Shown: piece by piece, positions 830 through 64,000 of the stretch
How the letters are laid out: the number at the start of each line of letters is the position of its first letter
Position numbering within the stretch: the stretch's first letter is position 1
DNA from: Octopus vulgaris
Taxonomy: Eukaryota
Assembly (NCBI GenBank): GCA_951406725.2
Contig: OX597840.1
Location: 19,096,001-19,160,000, forward strand
DNA: 64,000 bases
Direction: 5' to 3'
Notes under the pieces: model-generated
What the model was told of the DNA's origin: nothing
What the model saw: the letters and a program-made list of their open reading frames with translations, nothing else
The model's database searches: none
Program-made: the position numbers and the translations under genes

Positions 830-3470
830 CATTGTACCAAACTTCAATAATCTACAATGGTAACACCTACTTCGACTAAAAAACGACGAAGACCTGATAA
901 TCAAAGAAGCAGAGAAAGGTAGTGCTGTGTTCCTGATGGACACAGAATAATAAAAAAACCTAGCATTATCCATATTATAAAATGACTCCTTTTATGAAAA
1001 AGTTGCAAATTATAGGCAGCAAAAAACATTAAAAGGTCTTGCATCTTTAATACTCAAACATGAAAAAGGTCTCATAGAAAAAGAAAAGTTTATATCACAA
1101 AGTTTAAAAGCAAACCAAGCCTTTTCTATGGCCTCCCCCGAATCCGGAAGAGTAAGATTATTGCCAATGCCTGTAAATCAAATCGAGGTTTATACATAAA
1201 TATCTCAACACCAGAAAACTTAAAATTAAGGCCGATTATAGCGTCCCCAGCCTGTGAAAAACACCACCTAAGCAATTTTCTGCACTTTTCCTCAGATACA
1301 TTAAAAGTTTCATTAGAGACGATCTGGATATACAAGAACATCTACCAAAAACCAACAACGAAGAAACACTATTAGTTTCCTTCGATGTCATCAACCTCTA
1401 CCCCAACATTCTATATGACTACGGAATAGAGGCAATAAAATTCTGGTTAGAAAAATACCCCGAAGGTCTCCCGGACCGCATAGACCAGACTTTTGTCTTT
1501 GAATCTCTGAAGTTCATCCTACAAAACAATTAATTCCTGTTTGATGAAACATACTACCGCCAAAAATGCGGTATTGCGATGGGAACAAAAGCCGCGCCTG
1601 TCCTTGAGAACCTAATAATGGATTTCTTTGAATCTATGAATTTTCGCTCCAAAGATTTGGATCCCCATTCCACCAGTATATAAGAGAAAATTGGAAAAGG
1701 TACCTAGACGACTGTTTTATCATCAGGAATGAAACATATGATAAAATTCTGGATTTCAAATTTACAATAAACAACATAACCTCCAATATTTAATTTATAA
1801 TGGAATGAAAAGCTCCCAATTCAGGACATTTTGATTTTAAAAAATCCAACAACCAAATTGCAACCGACATCTGCCACAAACCAACAGACTCAAAACAGTA
1901 ACTCTTTTTCAGTTCATGCCATCCTAAACTCACAAAAATAAATATCCCATTCAATCTAGCAAAAGGATCTAGCAAAAATGGGTATATCAGATACAATTGC
2001 AGATTTAATCTATCAAAAAATGTTGTATCAGATACAATTGTTCAATTGTATCTGATACAACCACTCGGGAACTTCGCCTACAAGACCTCAAAAAACACTC
2101 ACTGAACATTAATACCCAACCGCACTTATAGACCATGGAATTAAACATGCCAAAAAACTGGACACAAATACACTAAGGACAACAAAATAAAACACCATAC
2201 CTCATTTTAAATCACCCCCATACATATCAACCCATAACCCCAGAAACAATGAAGCATACAACACATGTGTACAAAATATCCCTTTTCTCACTCAAGACCT
2301 GAAAATGAACAACATTCGGAATACACATAAACCCTTCAAGTGCAAAAGACAACGCAAATCGCTTAAGAGATTCCTAACAAATGCAAAACTGTACTCAACA
2401 CATACCATACCAACAGTTAAAAAATGCGGACGACCTAATTGTGGTACATGCCCAAATATAAGTGAAGGCTCGCAATTCACATTCCAGTAAGGAAAATGTT
2501 TTTCAATTAAAACCAACTTCACGCTTCTCAGAACCTAATTTATATCCTAAACTGTTCAGGTTGTGGCCTCAATTATGTGGGCCCAACGAGCCTTACTTTA
2601 AGACGCAGAGTTACGTTGCATAAAGAACAGATTCGTTTTCTTCAGTACAAGTAGATAGCTCTGAGCGAACATATTGACAGATGCGCAAGAAATAAAACAC
2701 CGAATTTCCAGATTTTCCCATTATACCAATGCAAATATTCAATCTCCTTACAAGGATGCCTAAACAAAGAAAACATGTTTATACAAAAGTACAGACACAC
2801 CTTAATATACAAACTTGACCACCTGATTCCTACACATTCATTAAAAATAAAAATAAAGATAAAAAATAAAAATGTGAACCTGAAATGTAACACTTTCACT
2901 CAATTTACATATTTCTTCGCCCTATTTAATTTATATTATATTATATTAACCAAGGATTTTTTCTTTTGTCTACAATAATTCAATGTTGACAAAATGTGGA
3001 ACTTGTATTATAAATTACACACAAATGTACAGTTGAATATATTGTCAAGTGAAATGGACTTTTTGTACATTTCAATTACAATTTAAATTTTCTATTTCAC
3101 AATTATTCAAATTTGCAATTATTACTTTTTCACATTTCCTGTGGAAATTGCCTCTCATATTATACTTGACTTACTAAAATATGAATTCTAGATCTAACAT
3201 TTTATACTAATTGTATTAATACAAAAATCGCGATTTCAATATCAAATTTATTTACCACTATTCAATAATGCTGAGGAGGTAGTTGTCCTCCTTGCTACCT
3301 GTTGCCTCCCTTTATCCACTCTCTCTATTCATTTTTATTTCTCAAAAAATCCCGAATGGTGTGATTCTTTGTTTCAAGGAATTATTACTTCACAATGTCC
3401 CTTGGAACGCTAATTTAAGTAGCGAAAACCGGTTGGATATCACTACATTTTATGAGACTTTTACCATAAT
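830..3470 (+). mobile_element. Decayed Penelope-like retroelement (RT + GIY-YIG endonuclease + 3' UTR)
   Basis: Motifs across frameshifts and stops: IIKEAEKGSAV, FYGLPRI, LRPII, LVSFDVINLYPNI, QKCGIAMGTKAAP, WKRYLDDCF, KPTD, SSCHP, CGRPNCGTC, NLIYILNCSGCGLNYVG. Confidence 0.92.
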
Positions 3471-3630
3471 ATAAATATATATATATATTATAAAAAGATT
3501 TTAAAACAATGTGAAGGGAAGGCATTTTTCTCCCCCTTTTCTTATATGTGTTTTCAACATATTTTCACTTCGTAATTTTGCCATGTGGTGTATACTGATT
3601 CTCCAGCGCTTTTGCCTCTTCTATTTATAT

Positions 3631-3703
<73 letters not shown>

Positions 3704-4783
3704 TCAACTAAGGATTACATGAAGGGATAGTAAAATTCAATGAAGATACTGGTTTATTGCCTATTATTAATATTGAATATTATATCTAATATTAAAAAAA
3801 TAAGATAATTAGATAAACCGAGGTTTATCATATTTAGTTATGAAAAATAAGAAAATAGAGATAAATCAATTAATAATTATTGATGAATTACAAAAATAGA
3901 CATAATCTCTGACAGCTTTAGAAATCAATTTAAAGAATTAAAACATTATAAAGTTGAATCTCGTGGGAAGTAGGAAATAGATAAACCATTACATTTTTGT
4001 ATTTTTGTGTAAACTTACTGAGCGTATCAGCTGAGTATGGTTTTATAGAAAGAACATGGTATAAACTTTATAAAGGGGGGAAAGGTAGTATGTTTAGGGA
4101 AGATAGTATAAAAAGAATAGAATCATAGTAATAAACCGTATATTTAAGTATCAAATAAATGTAAGGGTAAATGTAATTATAAGAATTTAAGTAATATTAT
4201 ATAATCTGGGTAGTTATTAAAAAGTATAAAAATAAACAATATTTTAATTAACCTTTTAAACTATAATTAATTATAAAGTAATTATTAAGGTAAATATATT
4301 TATAATAATTTATAAAAATTTAAGTAATAAGGGTATATAAATATGTAAATATAATAAGTATTAAAAAAGTGTAATGTAATATGCAAAAATATATTTTTTA
4401 ATGCATGTATGCTATAAATACGATGCAGTCTTCATATGTATAGAGAAACAAATAAATATATAAAATAATAGAGAGTAGAAAGATAAATGGGCATATTGGA
4501 AATCCCCTATTGCGCGAAAATCCACAAGTATTTATCATGCTAAATGTTTGCATTGTTGAATTAAATGGAGTCGCATGAAACGATCGTACTGCATTAACTC
4601 TGGATATCCTTGTTGCTTATTTTGATGTAATATATATATTGTTATCATTCTTCCGGAGTACGCCACTGAAATCGTGATTGGAAATCAAAAATAATCTGTC
4701 CGTGACTCTACAATAACTTTTCCTCGAACATTTTTTCTCGTACTTTTTTATTCTTCTACCTTACTACTTCCGTCTTTCAATAT

Positions 4784-4983
4784 GTGACCTCGTGAGTACC
4801 ACTGGCGATTTTTTCCTCTGTCTTCCCTTCTCTGGATGGATCTTTCCTTCTCCTATGTTTCTGACGAAGAGCTCCGCTCGAAACGTTAAACCCTCCTTCT
4901 TCCCTTCTTTCCTGAGCGTCCAATAATACTTAATTTGTTCCACGTCCTTGCGTTGTTGTGTTTTTTTGTTTTCTTGTTTGGAT

Positions 4984-4989
<6 letters not shown>
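4784..4989 (+). mobile_element. Short HHR-bearing element, family HA copy 1
   Basis: Matches copies at 6540, 11963 and 26643; 3' end runs into (TA)n. Confidence 0.8.
4857..4891 (+). ncRNA. Minimal type I hammerhead ribozyme motif
   Basis: GTTT-CTGACGA-A-GAGC(TCC)GCTC-GAAA-CGT-T-AAAC: stem I GTTT/AAAC, stem II GAGC/GCTC, palindromic ACGT in place of stem III. Confidence 0.75.
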
Positions 4990-6539: not shown

Positions 6540-6540
<1 letters not shown>

Positions 6541-6747
6541 GTGACCGCGTGTGTACCGTTGGCGATTTTTTTTCCTGTCTTCACTTCTCTGGATCTTTCC
6601 TTTTCCTATGATTCTGACGAAGAGCTCCGCTCGAAACGTTAAACCTTCCTTCTTTCCTTCTTTCCTGAGCATCCAATAATACTATATTTGTTCCACGTCC
6701 TCGCGTTGTTGTGTTTTCTCTTGGTGTTTTCATGTTTGGATTAACTT
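6540..6747 (+). mobile_element. Short HHR-bearing element, family HA copy 2
   Basis: CTGACGAAGAGCTCCGCTCGAAACGTTAAAC starting at 6614; flanked by (TA)n on both sides. Confidence 0.8.
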
Positions 6748-11962: not shown

Positions 11963-12098
11963 ATGACCGCGTGTGTACCGTTGGCGATTTTTTTTCCTCC
12001 GTCTTCCCTTCTCTGGATCTTTCCTTTTCCTATGTTTCTGACGAAGAGCTCCGCTCGAAACGTAAAACCCTCCTTATTCCCTTCCTTCCTGAGTGTCC
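11963..12098 (+). mobile_element. Short HHR-bearing element, family HA copy 3 (3' truncated)
   Basis: HHR 12034-12068 GTTT-CTGACGA-A-GAGCTCCGCTC-GAAA-CGT-A-AAAC, with a GUA cleavage triplet. Confidence 0.8.
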
Positions 12099-12529
12099 AT
12101 ATATATATATATATATATATTGGTTTCACTTCTTGGCGCAAAGACAGGAATTTTGCGTGAGGGGTAGATTGATTATATCAACCACAGCGATCTTATTTTA
12201 TCGACCCCGAAAGAATTAAAGACAAAAGCGGCCTCAGCGGAAGATGAATTCAAAACGCACAGACGAAAAAATACCGCTAAGCATTCTGCTCGGCGTGCTA
12301 ACGTTTCGGCCAGCTCGTCGCCTTCATCCATGTGTATATATATATATATATATACATTGGAACTGGCTGTGTAGTAAGAAATTTGCTTCCTAACCACAGC
12401 GTGGCACAATGGGCGAGTGTCTTCTATCAAAGCCTGTGGCCGAAAGGCTGACCAAAAGGTGGTGAGTGGATTTCGCAGTAGGAGACTGAATGAAGCCTGC
12501 CGTATGTGTATATATATGTATAGGTTTTT

Positions 12530-13189: not shown

Positions 13190-13243
<54 letters not shown>

Positions 13244-13248
<5 letters not shown>

Positions 13249-13420
13249 GAGTTTACGAAACAAACAAAAGACGAAGACAGGTGGGGTACAAAACAAACAG
13301 ATGTATTAGTATAACTCTCAGGAACTGAAAAAGTCTTTTACGTTTCGAGCCTATGCTCTTCTACAGAAAGGGACTCAGTAAACAAGGAGAGAAAAATGTG
13401 TGTAGTGGCTAACGATGTTC
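13244..13420 (-). mobile_element. Short HHR-like element, family HB copy 1
   Basis: Minus strand of 13335-13370: CTTT-CTGTAGA-A-GAGC(ATAG)GCTC-GAAA-CGT-A-AAAG; abuts (TA)n. Confidence 0.78.
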
Positions 13421-22257: not shown

Positions 22258-22373
22258 ATATATGTATTTATATATACATATATAATAAATATACACCCCC
22301 AAACCGAAGAACAAACAAAATAAAAAACAACGCGAGGATGTGGTACATGCAAAGTATTAGCAGACGATCAGGG

Positions 22374-24025: not shown

Positions 24026-24391
24026 CAGTTAATCCAAACAAGAAAACAAGAAACAACAACGCAAGGATGTGGAACAAATCAACAAACACACGCACACACA
24101 CATATAGATATAGATATACTGTGATAAACTATGACATATATATACGTAGACTGGTACGCATGCGCATGTAATTGTACGGAGAGAAAAATAACAGTGTATG
24201 CGTATTTCCGTCTTGGCTTGATACGACTTTCAAACTTCCCAACATATTGAATTCTGTGTGAGATAGTGTTTGCACTAAATAACGGTGGTGCTCCAGCATA
24301 GCCACAGTCAAATGATTAAAACAAGTAAAAGAATAAAAGAACACACACACACACACATACACACACGCACACACACATACACACACACATA

Positions 24392-26582: not shown

Positions 26583-26642
<60 letters not shown>

Positions 26643-26645
<3 letters not shown>

Positions 26646-26824
26646 ATCCAAACATGAAAACACATCAACGCGAGGACGTGGAACAAATATAGTGTTATTG
26701 GACGCACAGAAAAGAAAAGAATGAGGATTTAACGCGGAGCTCTTCGTCAGAAACATAGAAAAAGGAAAGATCCAAGGAAGGGAAGACGGAGGAAAAAAAT
26801 CGCCAACGATACACACATGGTCAC
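26643..26824 (-). mobile_element. Family HA copy 4, HHR inactivated by deletion
   Basis: Minus strand reads GTTTCTGACGAAGAGCTCCGC then GTTAAA; TCGAAAC is missing. Confidence 0.8.
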
Positions 26825-26862
26825 ACACACACACACACATATATATATAATATATAATATAT

Positions 26863-27632: not shown

Positions 27633-27639
<7 letters not shown>

Positions 27640-29036
27640 TAAATGAAAGAATGGAGTCGAACGAAGATGTTAACAAAATTCCTTTACTCTCGACACATGT
27701 TTCGAAGACAGCATGTTCTCATTCCAACCCATCATACAATTATAATAATAGGAATAGTATTAATAGTAGCAGCATTAGTAGCAGCGAAGGTGTTAACAAT
27801 GATAATATTAATGATAGTATTAGTCGTGATAATAACAATGGTAGTGTTGATGGTAACAACAATAACGGTATTATTGTCGGTGGTATTACTGGTTGTAATA
27901 CCATTAATAATACTAATAATAATAGAAATAGTGTAGTTGTTAGCGCTAATAATAATAGTAACAACAGTAATAACAATAAAAACTTCGTCTCGATCTCGGA
28001 GGACAACCCCAACAGAATTAAATTTTTGTCTAGTAATTCTAAGATTAAGAATGCTATTTACCAGTGTAGAATTTCTTCCGGTACCGATGTCTTCTTCTAT
28101 ATAGAAGCTTCCACTTCCCAGTTATCCAAGAGAATTTCATACCACTACTCAACATTCAGAGATAGTAAAAAACGTCATAGCACAGGGCTAAGTAAATTAG
28201 TTTGGCGTCTTAAAGACAACAATATAATTTTCAAGTTAGATTGGCTCATACTGTCTGTATCCTTTCCTTTTGATAAGGGCAGGAGATTCTGTAACTCTGT
28301 AACATTTGTAACTCTGAACTCTTCCATATTCTTTTCGCTAAGGTTCCCCTAGTAAACACACTCATAGAAAAATCGTACAAATGTAAACACTGGCAGAAAC
28401 ACACTTTCTACTCATATAAATGATAACGATAGTCACTGTGGTTTGAACAATTAGCTTTACGCCCACCACACTGCTATAGAGAAATTCTTTCCTAAGCCTT
28501 CGAACATTCTTTCAATCAACGTACCCTTCCCTCTTCACTTGTTCCCTAACTATTATTCCTTTATACCTTCCCTTCCTACTATCTATCTTTGACATCTGTC
28601 TCTCTCTCTCTCTCACACACACAATCACACACACAGACACAAATGCAGTTATACACACACACATACACACACACAAACGCACGCACTCATTAACACAAGC
28701 ACACACTCACACATTTCCATACATACAGCAAACATACTATTCCCTACCTCTTATTACTTTATCCCTTCTCTTCCTACTATCTATTTTTAACATCAATTCT
28801 TCTAACGGTTTTTTTAAAGAAACACTCATTATCGCTTTGTTTACCATGTAGGCAATCATCGAAATTTTTGCTTGTCTTGTTGCCGAGAGAGGCTCCCTTT
28901 CTTTCCTGATGAGAAGATTGCATAATGCACCCTTTATTCCTTTGGAATGAGAACATGCTGTCTTCGAAACATGTGTCGAGAGTAAAGGAATTTTGTTGAC
29001 ACCTTCGTTCGACTCCATTCTTTCATTTATTCATAT
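27633..29036 (+). mobile_element. 5'-truncated Neptune-type PLE with inverted terminal segment
   Basis: GIY-YIG remnant NAIYQC...FFYIEAST...KRISYHYSTF...STGLSKLVWRLK...LDWLIL...FCN and KCKH; 27633-27727 is an inverted copy of 28942-29036. Confidence 0.85.
28895..28989 (+). ncRNA. Type I hammerhead ribozyme
   Basis: CTTTC-CTGATGA(28906)-GAAGA...TCTTC-GAAA(28966)-CATGTG-TC-GAGAG; extended stem I, long stem II, GUC site. Confidence 0.85.
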
Positions 29037-31100: not shown

Positions 31101-31330
31101 TACAATATAATGATAATAATAATATAAAGACGACTGAAATATACGTTTCTCAAGTTCGATCCGATGATCAGCGGAGATGGAGGTCGATGCAAATATGACG
31201 ACGATATTACTTAATATTCGATAGATATTTCACTATAATGATGTCAATTTATTTATATATATATATGTATTTCCCTTCTTTATGTTTTCATGTTTGGATT
31301 AACTTTATACACACACACACACACACACAT

Positions 31331-33790: not shown

Positions 33791-33982
33791 ACGCCATGAT
33801 AGATCGTTAGCCACTACACACATTTTTTCTCTCGTTGTTTTTTTCTGTGTCCCTTTCTGTAGAAGAGCGTAGACTCGAAATGTAAAATACTTTTTCTATT
33901 CCTGAGCGTTATACTAATACATCTGTTTGTTTTGTACACCACCTGTGTTCGTCTTTTTTTTTTCGTTTTTTTCGTAAACTCT

Positions 33983-33987
<5 letters not shown>
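33791..33987 (+). mobile_element. Family HB copy 2
   Basis: CTTT-CTGTAGA-A-GAGCGTAGACTC-GAAA-TGT-A-AAAT at 33853-33888; 3' end runs into (TA)n. Confidence 0.78.
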
Positions 33988-45827: not shown

Positions 45828-46699
45828 CATCCTGTTCAATGCCACATATTTGCTTGTTGTCTTTGGTCAGTAACAGTTATTTCTTATTTGCTTCTGTCTA
45901 GAAATCAAAAGAAATCACTACTGGTCCCTTCAAACATTGCTTTTCTCATTTGGACATCAATGTCTTAAAACTGACCTATTTTCCTTACAATTCAGCACTG
46001 AATTTCCAAAGCAGAAATATTCCTTAGTGGCTGACAATATGTGTATCTCTTATCACGAGCAGGTGTAGTTGATGTGAGAGGGATTCAGTGGGGTTTGAAT
46101 AAATCTTAGACAAATAAAGTTTGAAATAAATATTAGCCATTGTTCATAGTTTCCAGGAGTAAGTAAATAGGAAATAACAGTTGCTACTCCAGGACAAAAT
46201 TCGTTTTACACAGCAATGTTTCCTAAAATAATTTACGCTGTGTAACAGGATTTAGTGTGTGTATGTGGTTGAGATTGAGTGTGCATGTATATGTATGTGT
46301 GCGTGCGTGCGTGTGTGCGTGCGCGCGCGCGTATGTGTGTGTGTGTGTGTGAGTGTGTGTGTGCGTGTGTGTGTGCGTAATAGGTTGCGATGTCCTATAA
46401 CTAGGTTGTCCCGACTGTGGACAATGAGTGACAGAGACAGTCACAGAATCGGTCGAGCGTCTGTAAAAATGAATTGTGGCATCTAATCCGATTGATTACT
46501 TGTATGTATGCATATGTATGTATTTCTCCTTCCTTCTCCCCTTCCCCCTCCTCTTCTCTCCTTTCCTTCTCCCCCCTCACCCTCTCTCCCTCCTCATCTC
46601 TCCTATCTCCCCCCTTACCTTCCCCCTCTTCCCCTCTCCCCTCATCTCCTCTCTCTACACTACACCATACGACTTTACACATCACATCATATATACATA

Positions 46700-47159
<460 letters not shown>

Positions 47160-53312: not shown

Positions 53313-54755
53313 ATATAAGAATGAATGTTTTTATATATAATGAACGTGAAATACAGGAAGGGACGAACACGGAACACAGACAAATCATTCGAAGCCTTCA
53401 ATCTTCAGTCAGACACCGAATCATCATAGCAAATTTCGGCTGTTCAATTCTGATATTTGCTCCAACTCGGCCAGCCCCAAGAAAAAAAAACTAAGCTGTA
53501 AGCATTAGATTTCTTGGTAGAAGACAGGAATGTGAACGCACAAGACGGATGTAAATACAAGAGACGAAAACGAAATTGAAAACAGTAATGAATAAACAAA
53601 ATATATATAACGGTGGTTGTCATACGACTTTAGACCAAATGAGACAAAAACAACAACAACATAGCTGGCGTAGAAATAATTACCGTTTCGGTAGCGGGGA
53701 CACATGTTGGTCGAGATACGATGGCCAACAGAATGGTTTAAGAAGCAGCAGGTTGCAGGAGAGAGAGAGAAAGAGAGACAGAGAGAGAGGGAATCAAAGA
53801 GGGTGGAAGGCAGGGGACAGAATCAGTGACCAAGAGAAAAGGAGAAAGAAGGGATTAAGGAGGATGGGAGGAAGAGGGGAGGAGGATGGGAGGAAGAGAG
53901 GGGAAGAATCGGAGGGCGCCAAAAAGTTTGGTGAAGAAGCAATGGCGGGTAGGAAAGACAGTGTGTATAGAAGTCGTGCAGGGTTTAAAATTAGACAAAC
54001 AAACGGGGGGGGGGGGGGTGCACGTGACGCCGCAATAATATAAGAATGAATGTTTTTATATATAATGAACGTGAAATACAGGAAGGGACGAACACGGAAC
54101 ACAGACAAATCATTCGAAGCCTTCAATCTTCAGTCAGACACCGAATCATCATAGCAAATTTCGGCTGTTCAATTCTGATATTTGCTCCAACTCGGCCAGC
54201 CCCAAGAAAAAAAAACTAAGCTGTAAGCATTAGATTTCTTGGTAGAAGACAGGAATGTGAACGCACAAGACGGATGTAAATACAAGAGACGAAAACGAAA
54301 TTGAAAACAGTAATGAATAAACAAAATATATATAACGGTGGTTGTCATACGACTTTAGACCAAATGAGACAAAAACAACAACAACATAGCTGGCGTAGAA
54401 ATAATTACCGTTTCGGTAGCGGGGACACATGTTGGTCGAGATACGATGGCCAACAGAATGGTTTAAGAAGCAGCAGGTTGCAGGAGAGAGAGAGAAAGAG
54501 AGACAGAGAGAGAGGGAATCAAAGAGGGTGGAAGGCAGGGGACAGAATCAGTGACCAAGAGAAAAGGAGAAAGAAGGGATTAAGGAGGATGGGAGGAAGA
54601 GGGGAGGAGGATGGGAGGAAGAGAGGGGAAGAATCGGAGGGCGCCAAAAAGTTTGGTGAAGAAGCAATGGCGGGTAGGAAAGACAGTGTGTATAGAAGTC
54701 GTGCAGGGTTTCAAATTGGACAAACAAACGGGGAGGTGCACGTAACGCCGCAATA
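53313..54755. repeat. Near-perfect tandem dimer of a 725-bp unit between (TA)n tracts
   Basis: 53316 and 54041 begin identical sequence; duplicated ORFs 53505/54230 and 53576/54301. Confidence 0.92.
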
Positions 54756-59891: not shown

Positions 59892-59926
<35 letters not shown>

Positions 59927-60115
59927 CAAAATAAGCAACAAGGATATCCAAGGTAGTGTAGTACAATCGTTTCATGCTACTTCATTTTATTAAACACTGT
60001 AAGTTGCTTATTTTGATTATAATCACCCCCATTTGATTTATATGGATAATACCATACCAAATTCTGGTGCCTTTAACTTAAGTACCATATTCATCTGAAT
60101 CTAAATTTTGCTGAA

Positions 60116-61004: not shown

Positions 61005-61229
61005 TTGTTTGCATATACATATACATATGCATATACATACCCCAACTCTACCCTAAACTTCAGCCTAACCCACACCCCACCCGTACTTGCCTCAATCTCG
61101 CCTCCCCCACCTCCCAACAACATCACACTACACCATACCACACAACACATCACAACAAACCACCACCCACACACCAGCACTGACCAATTCCCATCCCCAC
61201 ATTTTCGCACCTACACATACACACACACG

Positions 61230-61546
61230 ATCACAAGCCCTGTTTCACACGCACATACATACTCTCATACACACACGCGCACCTTCGTTTTGGGATCACT
61301 ACTACTACTTTGTTATCTCCCCTACAACTGAGCTCTCCTGTGTGACCCTTCTGTCCGGCATTCGCCATGTTAGATCGGTAGCCACTACAAACATTTTCTC
61401 TCCTTGTTTCTTTTTGTGTTCCTTTCTGTAGAACAGCGTAGGCTCGAAACGTTACAGACATTTTCAATTCCCGAGCGTTATACTAATACATCTGTTTGTT
61501 TTCTATACCACCTGTCTTCGTCTTTTGTTTTTTTCGCGAATTATCT

Positions 61547-61550
<4 letters not shown>
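61230..61550 (+). mobile_element. Family HB copy 4 with 5' extension
   Basis: CTTT-CTGTAGA-A-CAGCGTAGGCTC-GAAA-CGT-T-ACAG at ~61422-61457. Confidence 0.75.
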
Positions 61551-62600: not shown

Positions 62601-64000
62601 CTATACTTATATAACCCATACTTTAGGCCTAGAAGCAATCATACACTGGGTAGAGAAACATAGAAGACGGATAAATGAACGCTTCAAGGCTGACTTCATC
62701 ACCAAGGCCACACTCCTAGCACTAGAAGAAAATAACTTTAGTTTCGACAATAAGACATATCGACAGATAAAAAGGCACGGCTACGGGGATGCGGTTTGCG
62801 CTCCCTCATACGCAAAGTTAGTTGTGGGATACTTGGAAGAAACACTTTATGAGGAAGTAGAAAAACTTTTGATCAGGAGCACAAAAAATACATCATTAGA
62901 AAATGGAAACACTTCCTTGATGATTGTCTCATGTTCTGGGACAGATCGCATGAAGATCTAACTATATTTAACAATATGCTGAACACATTTCACCCATCCA
63001 TCAAATTCACGACAGAATCCAGTTGCAATGAATTACCATTCCTGGAGATCCACTTAAAAATACAGAACTCCACAGTCACAACAGACATATTTTACAAAAC
63101 AACTGACACACACCGATATTTAAATTTCTATTCTTGCCTTCCATCATACATCAAAAGAAACACCCCATATAGCATGGTAAAACGCATCTGTGCTATAGCG
63201 ACTGACCTCAAAATACGTGAAATCCAACTCAACGAACTCAAAAGCTTCCTCACCATTCAGAAATACCCCTTAGGATTAATTAATGAGGGAATTAAAAAGA
63301 CGATGAAACTGACCATCACCCAACTACGGACACTTAAGGAAAAAGTTAATGAAAACACGATTCCGTTCGTTAACACACACAGTCCTGGAATAACCAACAT
63401 CTTTCACACCATAAAATCGAACCAGTCTATACCCCTACAAAGCCCCAAAATGAAAAATCTGATTGAAAAAATACCTTACGGAATAGTAGATACCAACCAA
63501 AAAAATCTTAAAATACACCTCACAAGGGCAGAATTCAAATCAGAGAACGAATCGGAATTCTTAGTAAAAGAATGAAGAAATAGGAGACTTGGAACATGCG
63601 ACAACAACATCTTTAAATACTTAGAAAGTGGTTCCCACATAAAATTCAAGAGCGGACCCCTTTTCAAAATAAATGCAGATATCAACTGCAAAAACGCAAA
63701 ACCTCATATACTGCATTAACTGCCTAAACTGCAAAGAAAATTACATTGGTGAAACAAATAATTTCCTCTGCCAACGTGCAAGAATCCACAGGCAACATAT
63801 CCGACAAGAGGAATTACGCAAGATTCCATTAAGTAAGCACCTGGAGATATTCAGCAATGGAAGATTCAAAAATTTTCCTTTTACAAGTGTGTTCGGGACT
63901 ATCCGCAAAACCGAAAAGCAATGGAACTACATTTCATCAAAAAATTCTCTCCAGAACTGAATGTTTGAAAGAAAAGGGAGGTGAAAAAAGGAAGAAAAGG
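62601..64000 (+). mobile_element. Second decayed Penelope-like element (RT C-terminal half + GIY-YIG), running off the window
   Basis: LGLEAI, NNFSFDNKTYRQ, APSYA, WKHFLDDC, HPSIKFT, LPFLEI, TDIFYKTTDTHRYL, NLIYCINCLNCKENYIGET. Confidence 0.93.

Follow-up and report, generated by a model that had tools for sequence, protein, structure and literature searches.

Introduction

Minimal hammerhead ribozymes (min-HHRs) were described in Penelope-like elements (PLEs) of metazoans by Cervera and de la Pena (2014, PMC4209133); most of them are reported as single dispersed motifs, probably left by truncated PLEs. A single min-HHR showed no cleavage there and dimers showed weak cleavage, and among the dimer elements of Xenopus one of nine is reported to be active (bioRxiv 10.64898/2026.07.22.740005). 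The hammerhead of an Anolis PLE was found to cleave only with protein and to be dispensable for insertion in vitro (PMC11167929).

The terminal repeats of PLEs (pLTRs) are 193-218 bp long in a rotifer (PMC3846280), and transcription is known to start inside the pLTR (PMC2377424, PMC8557442). In the Anolis PLE reverse transcription begins internally, near the end of the pLTR, and an RNA with a shorter 5′-end gives a shorter product; these data on internal initiation concern a Poseidon element in vitro and no Neptune element (PMC11167929). A bias towards microsatellites has been reported for Neptune and Naiad PLEs (PMC8557442). PLEs make up 6.83% of the Octopus vulgaris assembly, with 190 families (PMC13282606), thus such repeats are expected there.

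Here we consider a repeat family, HA, in a window of 64,000 nucleotides of the O. vulgaris genome (contig OX597840.1). The window is AT-rich (26-44% GC), tandem repeats occupy about 27% of it (masking covered 17,173 of 64,000 bases), and it holds several interspersed families. The original prediction, made from the letters of the window, described a family of ~205-nt elements carrying a dimer-type minimal hammerhead. It missed the PLE connection, which makes the HA ribozyme a known type; this type, as well as its association with the ends of PLEs, is already published. A search of the open literature returned no paper on cephalopod PLE hammerheads or on the HA sequence. The remaining value of HA is in the pile-up of its 5′-ends.

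Copies and ends of the HA family

Searches of the 64-kb window with the sequence 6540-6747 (blastn and nhmmer) recovered three further long copies, with blastn E-values from 1e-71 to 5e-51, and three 3′ stubs; the predicted family is therefore real, with seven pieces in 64 kb (Table 1). Pairwise identity among the four long copies is 84-92%, and they carry 6, 4, 4 and 15 private substitutions over 127 shared columns. The copy predicted at 26643 on the reverse strand exists, with the correction that 26643 is its 3′-end and 26825 its start.

Table 1. Coordinates of HA and HB pieces, hammerhead motifs and Penelope-like elements in the window
Feature	Position	Strand	Remarks
PLE-1, decayed RT, linker zinc finger and GIY-YIG	1220..2729	+	tblastn with P0001, E 3e-41 and 8e-26; translation
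Hammerhead relic in PLE-1 3′ UTR	3395..3442	+	stems I and II of 6 and 4 bp, GAAA, palindrome CCGG; 3 mismatches in first box
Probable 5′ extension of 4784 copy	4640..4782	+	from short (TA) run ending another repeat to TGACC start; inference
HA copy	4783..4988	+	min-HHR intact at 4857-4891 (GUU site); then (TA)n
HA focal copy	6540..6747	+	208 nt; (TATC)n(TA)n on one side, (TA)/(TC) tract on the other
Minimal type I hammerhead of focal copy	6610..6644	+	stem I 6610-6613/6641-6644, A-A mismatch 6611/6643; CUGACGA 6614-6620; extra A 6621; stem II 6622-6625/6629-6632, 3-nt loop; GAAA 6633-6636; CG 6637-6638; U16.1 6639; N17=U 6640
HA copy	11962..~12130 (blastn from 11964)	+	min-HHR intact at 12034-12068 (GUA site); 3′-end lost
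HB short copy	13243..13416	-	min-HHR fold, CUGUAGA box at 13366
HA-related 3′ stub	22299..22372	-	74 nt; more divergent
HA 3′ stub	24027..24082	-	56 nt; 3′ variants in common with 4784 copy
HA copy	26640..26825	-	deletion removes GAAAC, dead core; splits (TA)n/(TG)n tract
HA 3′ stub	31277..31305	+	29 nt; 3′ variants in common with 6540 copy
HB copy	33792..33986	+	stems damaged
HB long copy	46657..47052	+	CUGUUGA box at 46920
HB long copy	61125..61550	+	internal TGTGACC at 61341
PLE-2, decayed RT-GIY-YIG	62602..63962	+	tblastn with P0001, E 9e-91; 3′ UTR past window end

The 3′-end of HA, GGATTAA followed by a TA tract, is fixed within a few nucleotides in five of the seven pieces; the 22372 stub, which is divergent, has a similar end, and from the 11963 copy the 3′-end is missing. 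Variants near this end sort the pieces into two groups, the 4784 copy with the 24082 stub, and the 6540 and 26825 copies with the 31277 stub. Measured from the 3′-end, the pieces extend over 29, 56, 74, 186, 206 and 208 nt, i.e. their 5′-ends vary. A common (G)TGACC start had been proposed. We did find TGACC at one alignment column in all four long copies, a coincidence not due to chance, but three pieces of seven (29, 56 and 74 nt) are 5′-truncated and the 4784 copy is probably longer. The start adjoins microsatellite, as predicted, in the 6540, 11963 and 26825 copies, with the 4783 junction as an exception. As for the ~205-nt copy claimed at 11963, its start is kept, but it breaks into (TA)n and the 3′-end is missing; another repeat family begins at 12169.

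Tracts of alternating purine and pyrimidine make up six of seven HA 5′ flanks and five of six 3′ flanks (11 of 13 together) versus 17% of all 20-mers, 4783 being the sole 5′ junction outside such a tract. Since the flanks are microsatellite, target-site duplications are unreadable. Among the seven pieces in the window we saw neither a tandem or inverted pair of HA nor a copy of the optional 30-40 bp tail, and there were no tandem copies that could form a dimer in cis; the nearest hammerhead motifs on one strand are 1753 nt apart.

The 4784 copy bears on the question of where the element begins. Upstream of its TGACC, the 67 nt at 4716-4782 are 78% pyrimidine, like the element body, a composition rarer than 0.6% of unmasked windows. 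The short TA run at 4640 closes another repeat, which has a twin at 59912-60002 with a long terminal (TA)n. The simplest reading is probably that of a 349-nt insertion (4640-4988) into the TA tail of that repeat, reaching ~143 nt past TGACC; TGACC would then lie inside a longer form. The stretch 4640-4782 has no second copy in the window, and we infer its membership in HA from its flanks and composition only.

Three other ideas about the element were considered and set aside. A longer 5′ region hidden behind a microsatellite internal to the element was not supported, as the three flanks have no unique sequence in common upstream. A Penelope-style intron ending at stem I does not fit either: GTGAGT occurs only in the 4784 copy, and all four long copies read TATG, not AG, before stem I. 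Hammerhead cleavage was rejected as the cause of the 5′ start, the cut site lying ~100 nt downstream.

The HA hammerhead

At 4861, 6614 and 12038 we find the predicted hammerhead boxes together with the ACGU palindrome; 30 dinucleotide shuffles contained no match. At these three sites the motif reads CUGACGA, A, GAGC-UCC-GCUC, GAAA, CG, U and then U, U or A. Both boxes, CUGANGA and GAAANNUH, thus occur in three of the four long copies; in the 26825 copy the second box is deleted, and without GAAAC this copy has no ribozyme core. The extra A and the GAGC/GCUC stem (G10.1-C11.1) are kept in all three copies with a core, and so is the self-complementary ACGU, which is the only stem III, with no loop 3. 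Cleavage of the 6540 copy is predicted after 6640.

The focal copy itself is a poorer example than had been thought. Its boxes and ACGU are in place, but position 6611 is A versus T in the other three long copies, which leaves two contiguous pairs in stem I. Because A6611 breaks stem I, the 6614 motif does not satisfy the published descriptor of min-HHRs (3-7 bp in stem I), used here as our re-implementation of that of Cervera and de la Pena (PMC4209133); only the 4861 and 12038 motifs, i.e. two of four long copies, pass it (0 of 100 shuffles).

The proposed dimer-type hammerhead is supported by the folding model, in which the A15.1-U16.1 pair of a monomer would close a forbidden 2-nt loop, and by agreement of the motif, in every item, with the published PLE min-HHR consensus. 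According to the model, an HA monomer cannot close stem III and two copies can pair ACGU with ACGU. The computed active dimers have energies of -7.3, -0.1 and -8.3 kcal/mol, tertiary contacts omitted, versus -24.7, -20.1 and -28.3 kcal/mol for alternative duplexes; a 4861+6614 heterodimer, computed in the same way, is at -3.7 kcal/mol, far above competing duplexes (-20 to -28). These model energies agree with the low activity published for min-HHRs.

Resemblance to the min-HHRs of metazoan PLEs, as presented in PMC4209133, extends to many details: the CUGANGAH box, the extra nucleotide before stem II, G10.1-C11.1, GAAA-CG-U-H without loop 3, a stem I of 3-5 bp, the U-rich 5′ flank and a mostly solo, dispersed occurrence. 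U17 is common in the alignment of that paper, as it is in HA. HA differs in its stem II, whose 4 bp and 3-nt loop are near the lower limit of the range, and the portion of the alignment examined holds no cephalopod row (PMC4209133).

Rfam gave no match at gathering score in the whole window and has no matching hammerhead model. At E ≤ 10, two HA copies searched separately had no hammerhead or tRNA match and gave chance matches only; in a run by E-value on the window, nearly all of the 150 matches listed out of 420 were microsatellite-driven miRNA matches. An exact search for the HA core in bacterial and archaeal genomes had no hit.

We also saw that an ATG just 5′ of the hammerhead opens a frame of 23 codons, which runs through the motif and ends in a stop (4855-4926 and the equivalents in other HA copies). 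In the Anolis PLE the ORF also begins at the hammerhead (PMC11167929).

Penelope-like elements in the window

Two decayed PLEs lie near the ends of the window (Table 1). Their identity as PLEs rests on proteins P0001 and P0002, of which P0001 carries RVT_1 and GIY-YIG; Pfam gave no match for any of five decayed ORF pieces from the window. In PLE-1 the endonuclease is preceded by a CX4CxxC linker. As this linker has been described for Neptune and Nematis (PMC8557442), we provisionally call the PLE of the window Neptune-like, a label that follows from the motif.

The 3′ UTR of PLE-1 contains a hammerhead relic, and (TA)n starts at 3622, ~180 nt after it. With the first box left free, the descriptor has four matches in the window: two in HA, one in the related family HB (see below) and the relic, at 3401. 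None of 2000 shuffles of the PLE-1 3′ UTR had a match to this descriptor. The order of ORF, hammerhead, fixed end and (TA)n is thus visible in the window. There is no similarity between HA and the PLE-1 end (score 21 versus a shuffle mean of 25), and tblastn over the 64-kb window placed no RT or endonuclease fragment next to any HA copy.

The endonuclease end of PLE-1 recurs in inverted orientation on the 5′ side of the element (533-808 versus 2647-2930, 83% identity), an inverted arrangement typical of PLE insertions. Elsewhere in the window, the last ~110 codons of an open frame at 27639-28352(+) presumably resemble the GIY-YIG end of a PLE of another clade; the frame had no Pfam match and no tblastn match with P0001 or P0002. 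A repeat of ~90 nt at 27636-27727 recurs at 28942-29033.

HA as a probable terminal repeat and the competing explanations

We consider it probable that HA is the pLTR of an endonuclease-bearing PLE, likely a Neptune-like one, and that its solo copies arose by run-off. The parts of this reading differ in strength: descent from a PLE is very likely, while for run-off at the transcription start as the cause of the common TGACC start the chances are about even, and ribozyme activity is putative in every HA copy. The pLTRs of PLEs with a C-terminal endonuclease (Neptune, Penelope/Poseidon) are, like HA, ~200 nt long, with an internal hammerhead, a fixed 3′-end, 5′ truncation and AT-rich or microsatellite targets, as far as described (PMC8557442, PMC3846280, PMC11167929). 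HA is unlike them in that neither an ORF linked to it nor a tandem or inverted arrangement nor a tail is visible in the window, arrangement and tail being optional in known PLEs, and in that an unusually large share of its copies begins at one point.

The events would be as follows. The PLE protein would nick (TA)n/(TG)n tracts, and reverse transcription would start at a fixed internal site, which would set the HA 3′-end; the short stubs would be ordinary 5′ truncations. A transcript of the form pLTR-ORF-pLTR would have two such start sites. Copying from the first pLTR would run off the RNA at its 5′-end and leave a solo HA of ~205 nt, with TGACC as the transcription start, and longer copies, e.g. 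4640-4988, would come from the downstream pLTR. Run-off could in this way give a discrete ~205-nt product without a separate master. The size of pLTRs, the transcription start inside them and the internal initiation of reverse transcription make such solo copies plausible. The hammerhead would be inherited pLTR cargo; its stem III would need a second copy, in tandem or in trans and probably with assistance of a protein, and it is probably silent in solo copies.

The start common to three copies lends slight support to the originally proposed discrete non-autonomous unit; the stubs, the longer 4784 copy and the ragged HB starts fit a PLE 3′ terminal repeat at least as well. With a PLE named as its partner, that proposal becomes a reading which we find unlikely, namely that HA is a SINE-like non-autonomous family, i.e. 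solo units of ~205 nt with their own internal promoter and reverse transcription start, themselves transcribed and copied in trans by a PLE. The TGACC column, seen in four of seven pieces, would also result from a SINE-like master. Three, possibly four, of the seven pieces start at one point, the family is dense locally (seven pieces in 64 kb) with no matching ORF, and the two sets of common 3′ variants suggest subfamilies. Non-autonomous PLE derivatives such as MRC1 of Chlamys are known (PMC8557442), as is trans-mobilization by pLTRs (PMC3846280). Under the SINE-like reading HA would be comparable to MRC1 and its kin in being non-coding, dependent on a PLE and furnished with the 3′-end of autonomous families, but the Chlamys PLEs belong to a green-algal clade with an N-terminal endonuclease, are mostly devoid of hammerheads and often form head-to-tail arrays (PMC8557442). 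Against a SINE-like HA are the 4784 copy, which appears ~143 nt longer at its 5′ side, and the ragged starts of HB. Besides, the RNA in the Poseidon assay had to reach ~55 nt past the reverse transcription start (PMC11167929) and, by extrapolation, this part would be missing from a solo copy with (TA)n at its end. As regards a tRNA-derived SINE with a tRNA-like 5′ head, Rfam gave no tRNA match at E ≤ 10 in two HA copies.

Alternatively, HA could be of PLE origin and its start a hot spot of truncation, where the ATATGTG seed of the element, just upstream of GACC, anneals to a (TA)n/(TG)n target that has been nicked. In the 4784 copy the sequence is ...AATATGTGACC, and the other three long copies join (TA)n or (TG)n flanks at the same point; also, a further short TA seed is where the 24082 stub starts and where the 11963 copy breaks. 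Microhomology-mediated 5′ junctions have been described for PLEs (PMC3846280). Still, no copy breaks at the 11-nt alternating run at +8 to +18, and a strong bias would be required for three independent breaks within ~2 nt; we regard a hot spot as doubtful.

Animal non-LTR retrozymes (PMC7229834; bioRxiv 10.64898/2026.07.22.740005) are, like HA, short non-coding hammerhead repeats related to pLTRs. One could suppose that HA pieces are dispersed monomers of a tandem retrozyme that spreads by hammerhead-excised circular RNA. The size of HA is within the reported retrozyme range (PMC7229834); the monomers of retrozymes are dispersed, and retrozymes are said to derive from pLTRs (bioRxiv 10.64898/2026.07.22.740005). 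This origin is nevertheless very improbable: there is no tandem HA array in the window; the cleavage site is ~100 nt from each HA end and no copy starts or ends there; the ends are fixed, with no permuted copies; and the ribozyme is minimal, not canonical type I.

Returning to HA as a pLTR, we found no HA motif in the supplement of PMC8557442, a weak negative given that the long sequences there are incomplete. Junctions of HA sought through spurious translated ORFs were found for neither of two candidates; there were two marginal matches, P0003 and P0004, of which P0003 is an unrelated repeat protein.

What the pile-up means depends on its cause. If it marks a transcription start, the solo pLTRs would be genomic evidence of internal initiation of reverse transcription (as reported in PMC11167929) on the first pLTR, and PLE start sites would be mappable from DNA alone. 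Should a self-propagating unit be the cause, HA would be a hammerhead-bearing, PLE-dependent SINE. A solo pLTR of this SINE-like, self-propagating kind, with its own start at TGACC and moved into microsatellites by a Neptune-like PLE, seems to us a long shot. Were it true, there would be perhaps 10^5 copies if the window is typical; half-hammerheads would cut RNA by pairing in trans or, where neighbouring copies (4861 and 6614) lie on the same host transcript, with each other; and HA, with the A6U variant of HB described below, would offer a large natural test bed for the retention by PLEs of ribozymes that work only as dimers.

Sister family HB

Four copies of a second family, HB, align with HA over ~150 nt (scores of 85 and 61 versus shuffle maxima of 45 and 50) and have the same layout. 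Their extents are 174, 195, at least 396 and at least 426 nt, with ragged 5′-ends; two copies have in common two 14-15-mers, absent elsewhere in the window, at 160-300 nt upstream of the ribozyme. With such ragged extents HB therefore behaves as a 5′-truncated PLE end.

Stem II of HB is that of HA; in stem I a C-G pair is swapped for the G-C of HA. The covariation between the families is a single compensatory event and is not significant (57 of 500 shuffles reach its score). Hammerhead position 6 is U in all four copies of HB (CUGUAGA or CUGUUGA versus CUGACGA), with the stems otherwise those of a min-HHR. Judged by these motifs, A6U is a natural variant of the core in a putative ribozyme. The HA family or the A6U variant may already be listed by Lunse et al. 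2017.

The HA start motif, TGTGACC, is also seen at 61341, ~85-90 nt upstream of the ribozyme in a long HB copy; it may be a conserved landmark or chance.

Other repeats in the window

The two-copy repeat at 4548-4640(+) and 60002-59912(-) ends in (TA)n and contains a 6-nt palindrome (CGATCG at 4548-4640) preceded by GAAA. Possibly this is the hammerhead of a third PLE end in a decayed or half-core state.

A direct duplication of 513 nt with 100% identity (53345-53857 and 54070-54582) is either very recent or an assembly artefact. Two inverted repeats, 44032-44532/45327-45827 (501 nt, 96%) and 32682-32982/33288-33588 (301 nt, 94%), are possibly non-autonomous DNA transposons. Finally, we observed four clusters of SINE-like repeats, with 17, 13, 9 and 7 intervals, mostly adjoining microsatellites; the short repeats of the window, one of which had no literature match for two of its motifs, are, we assume, similar to octopus SINEs.
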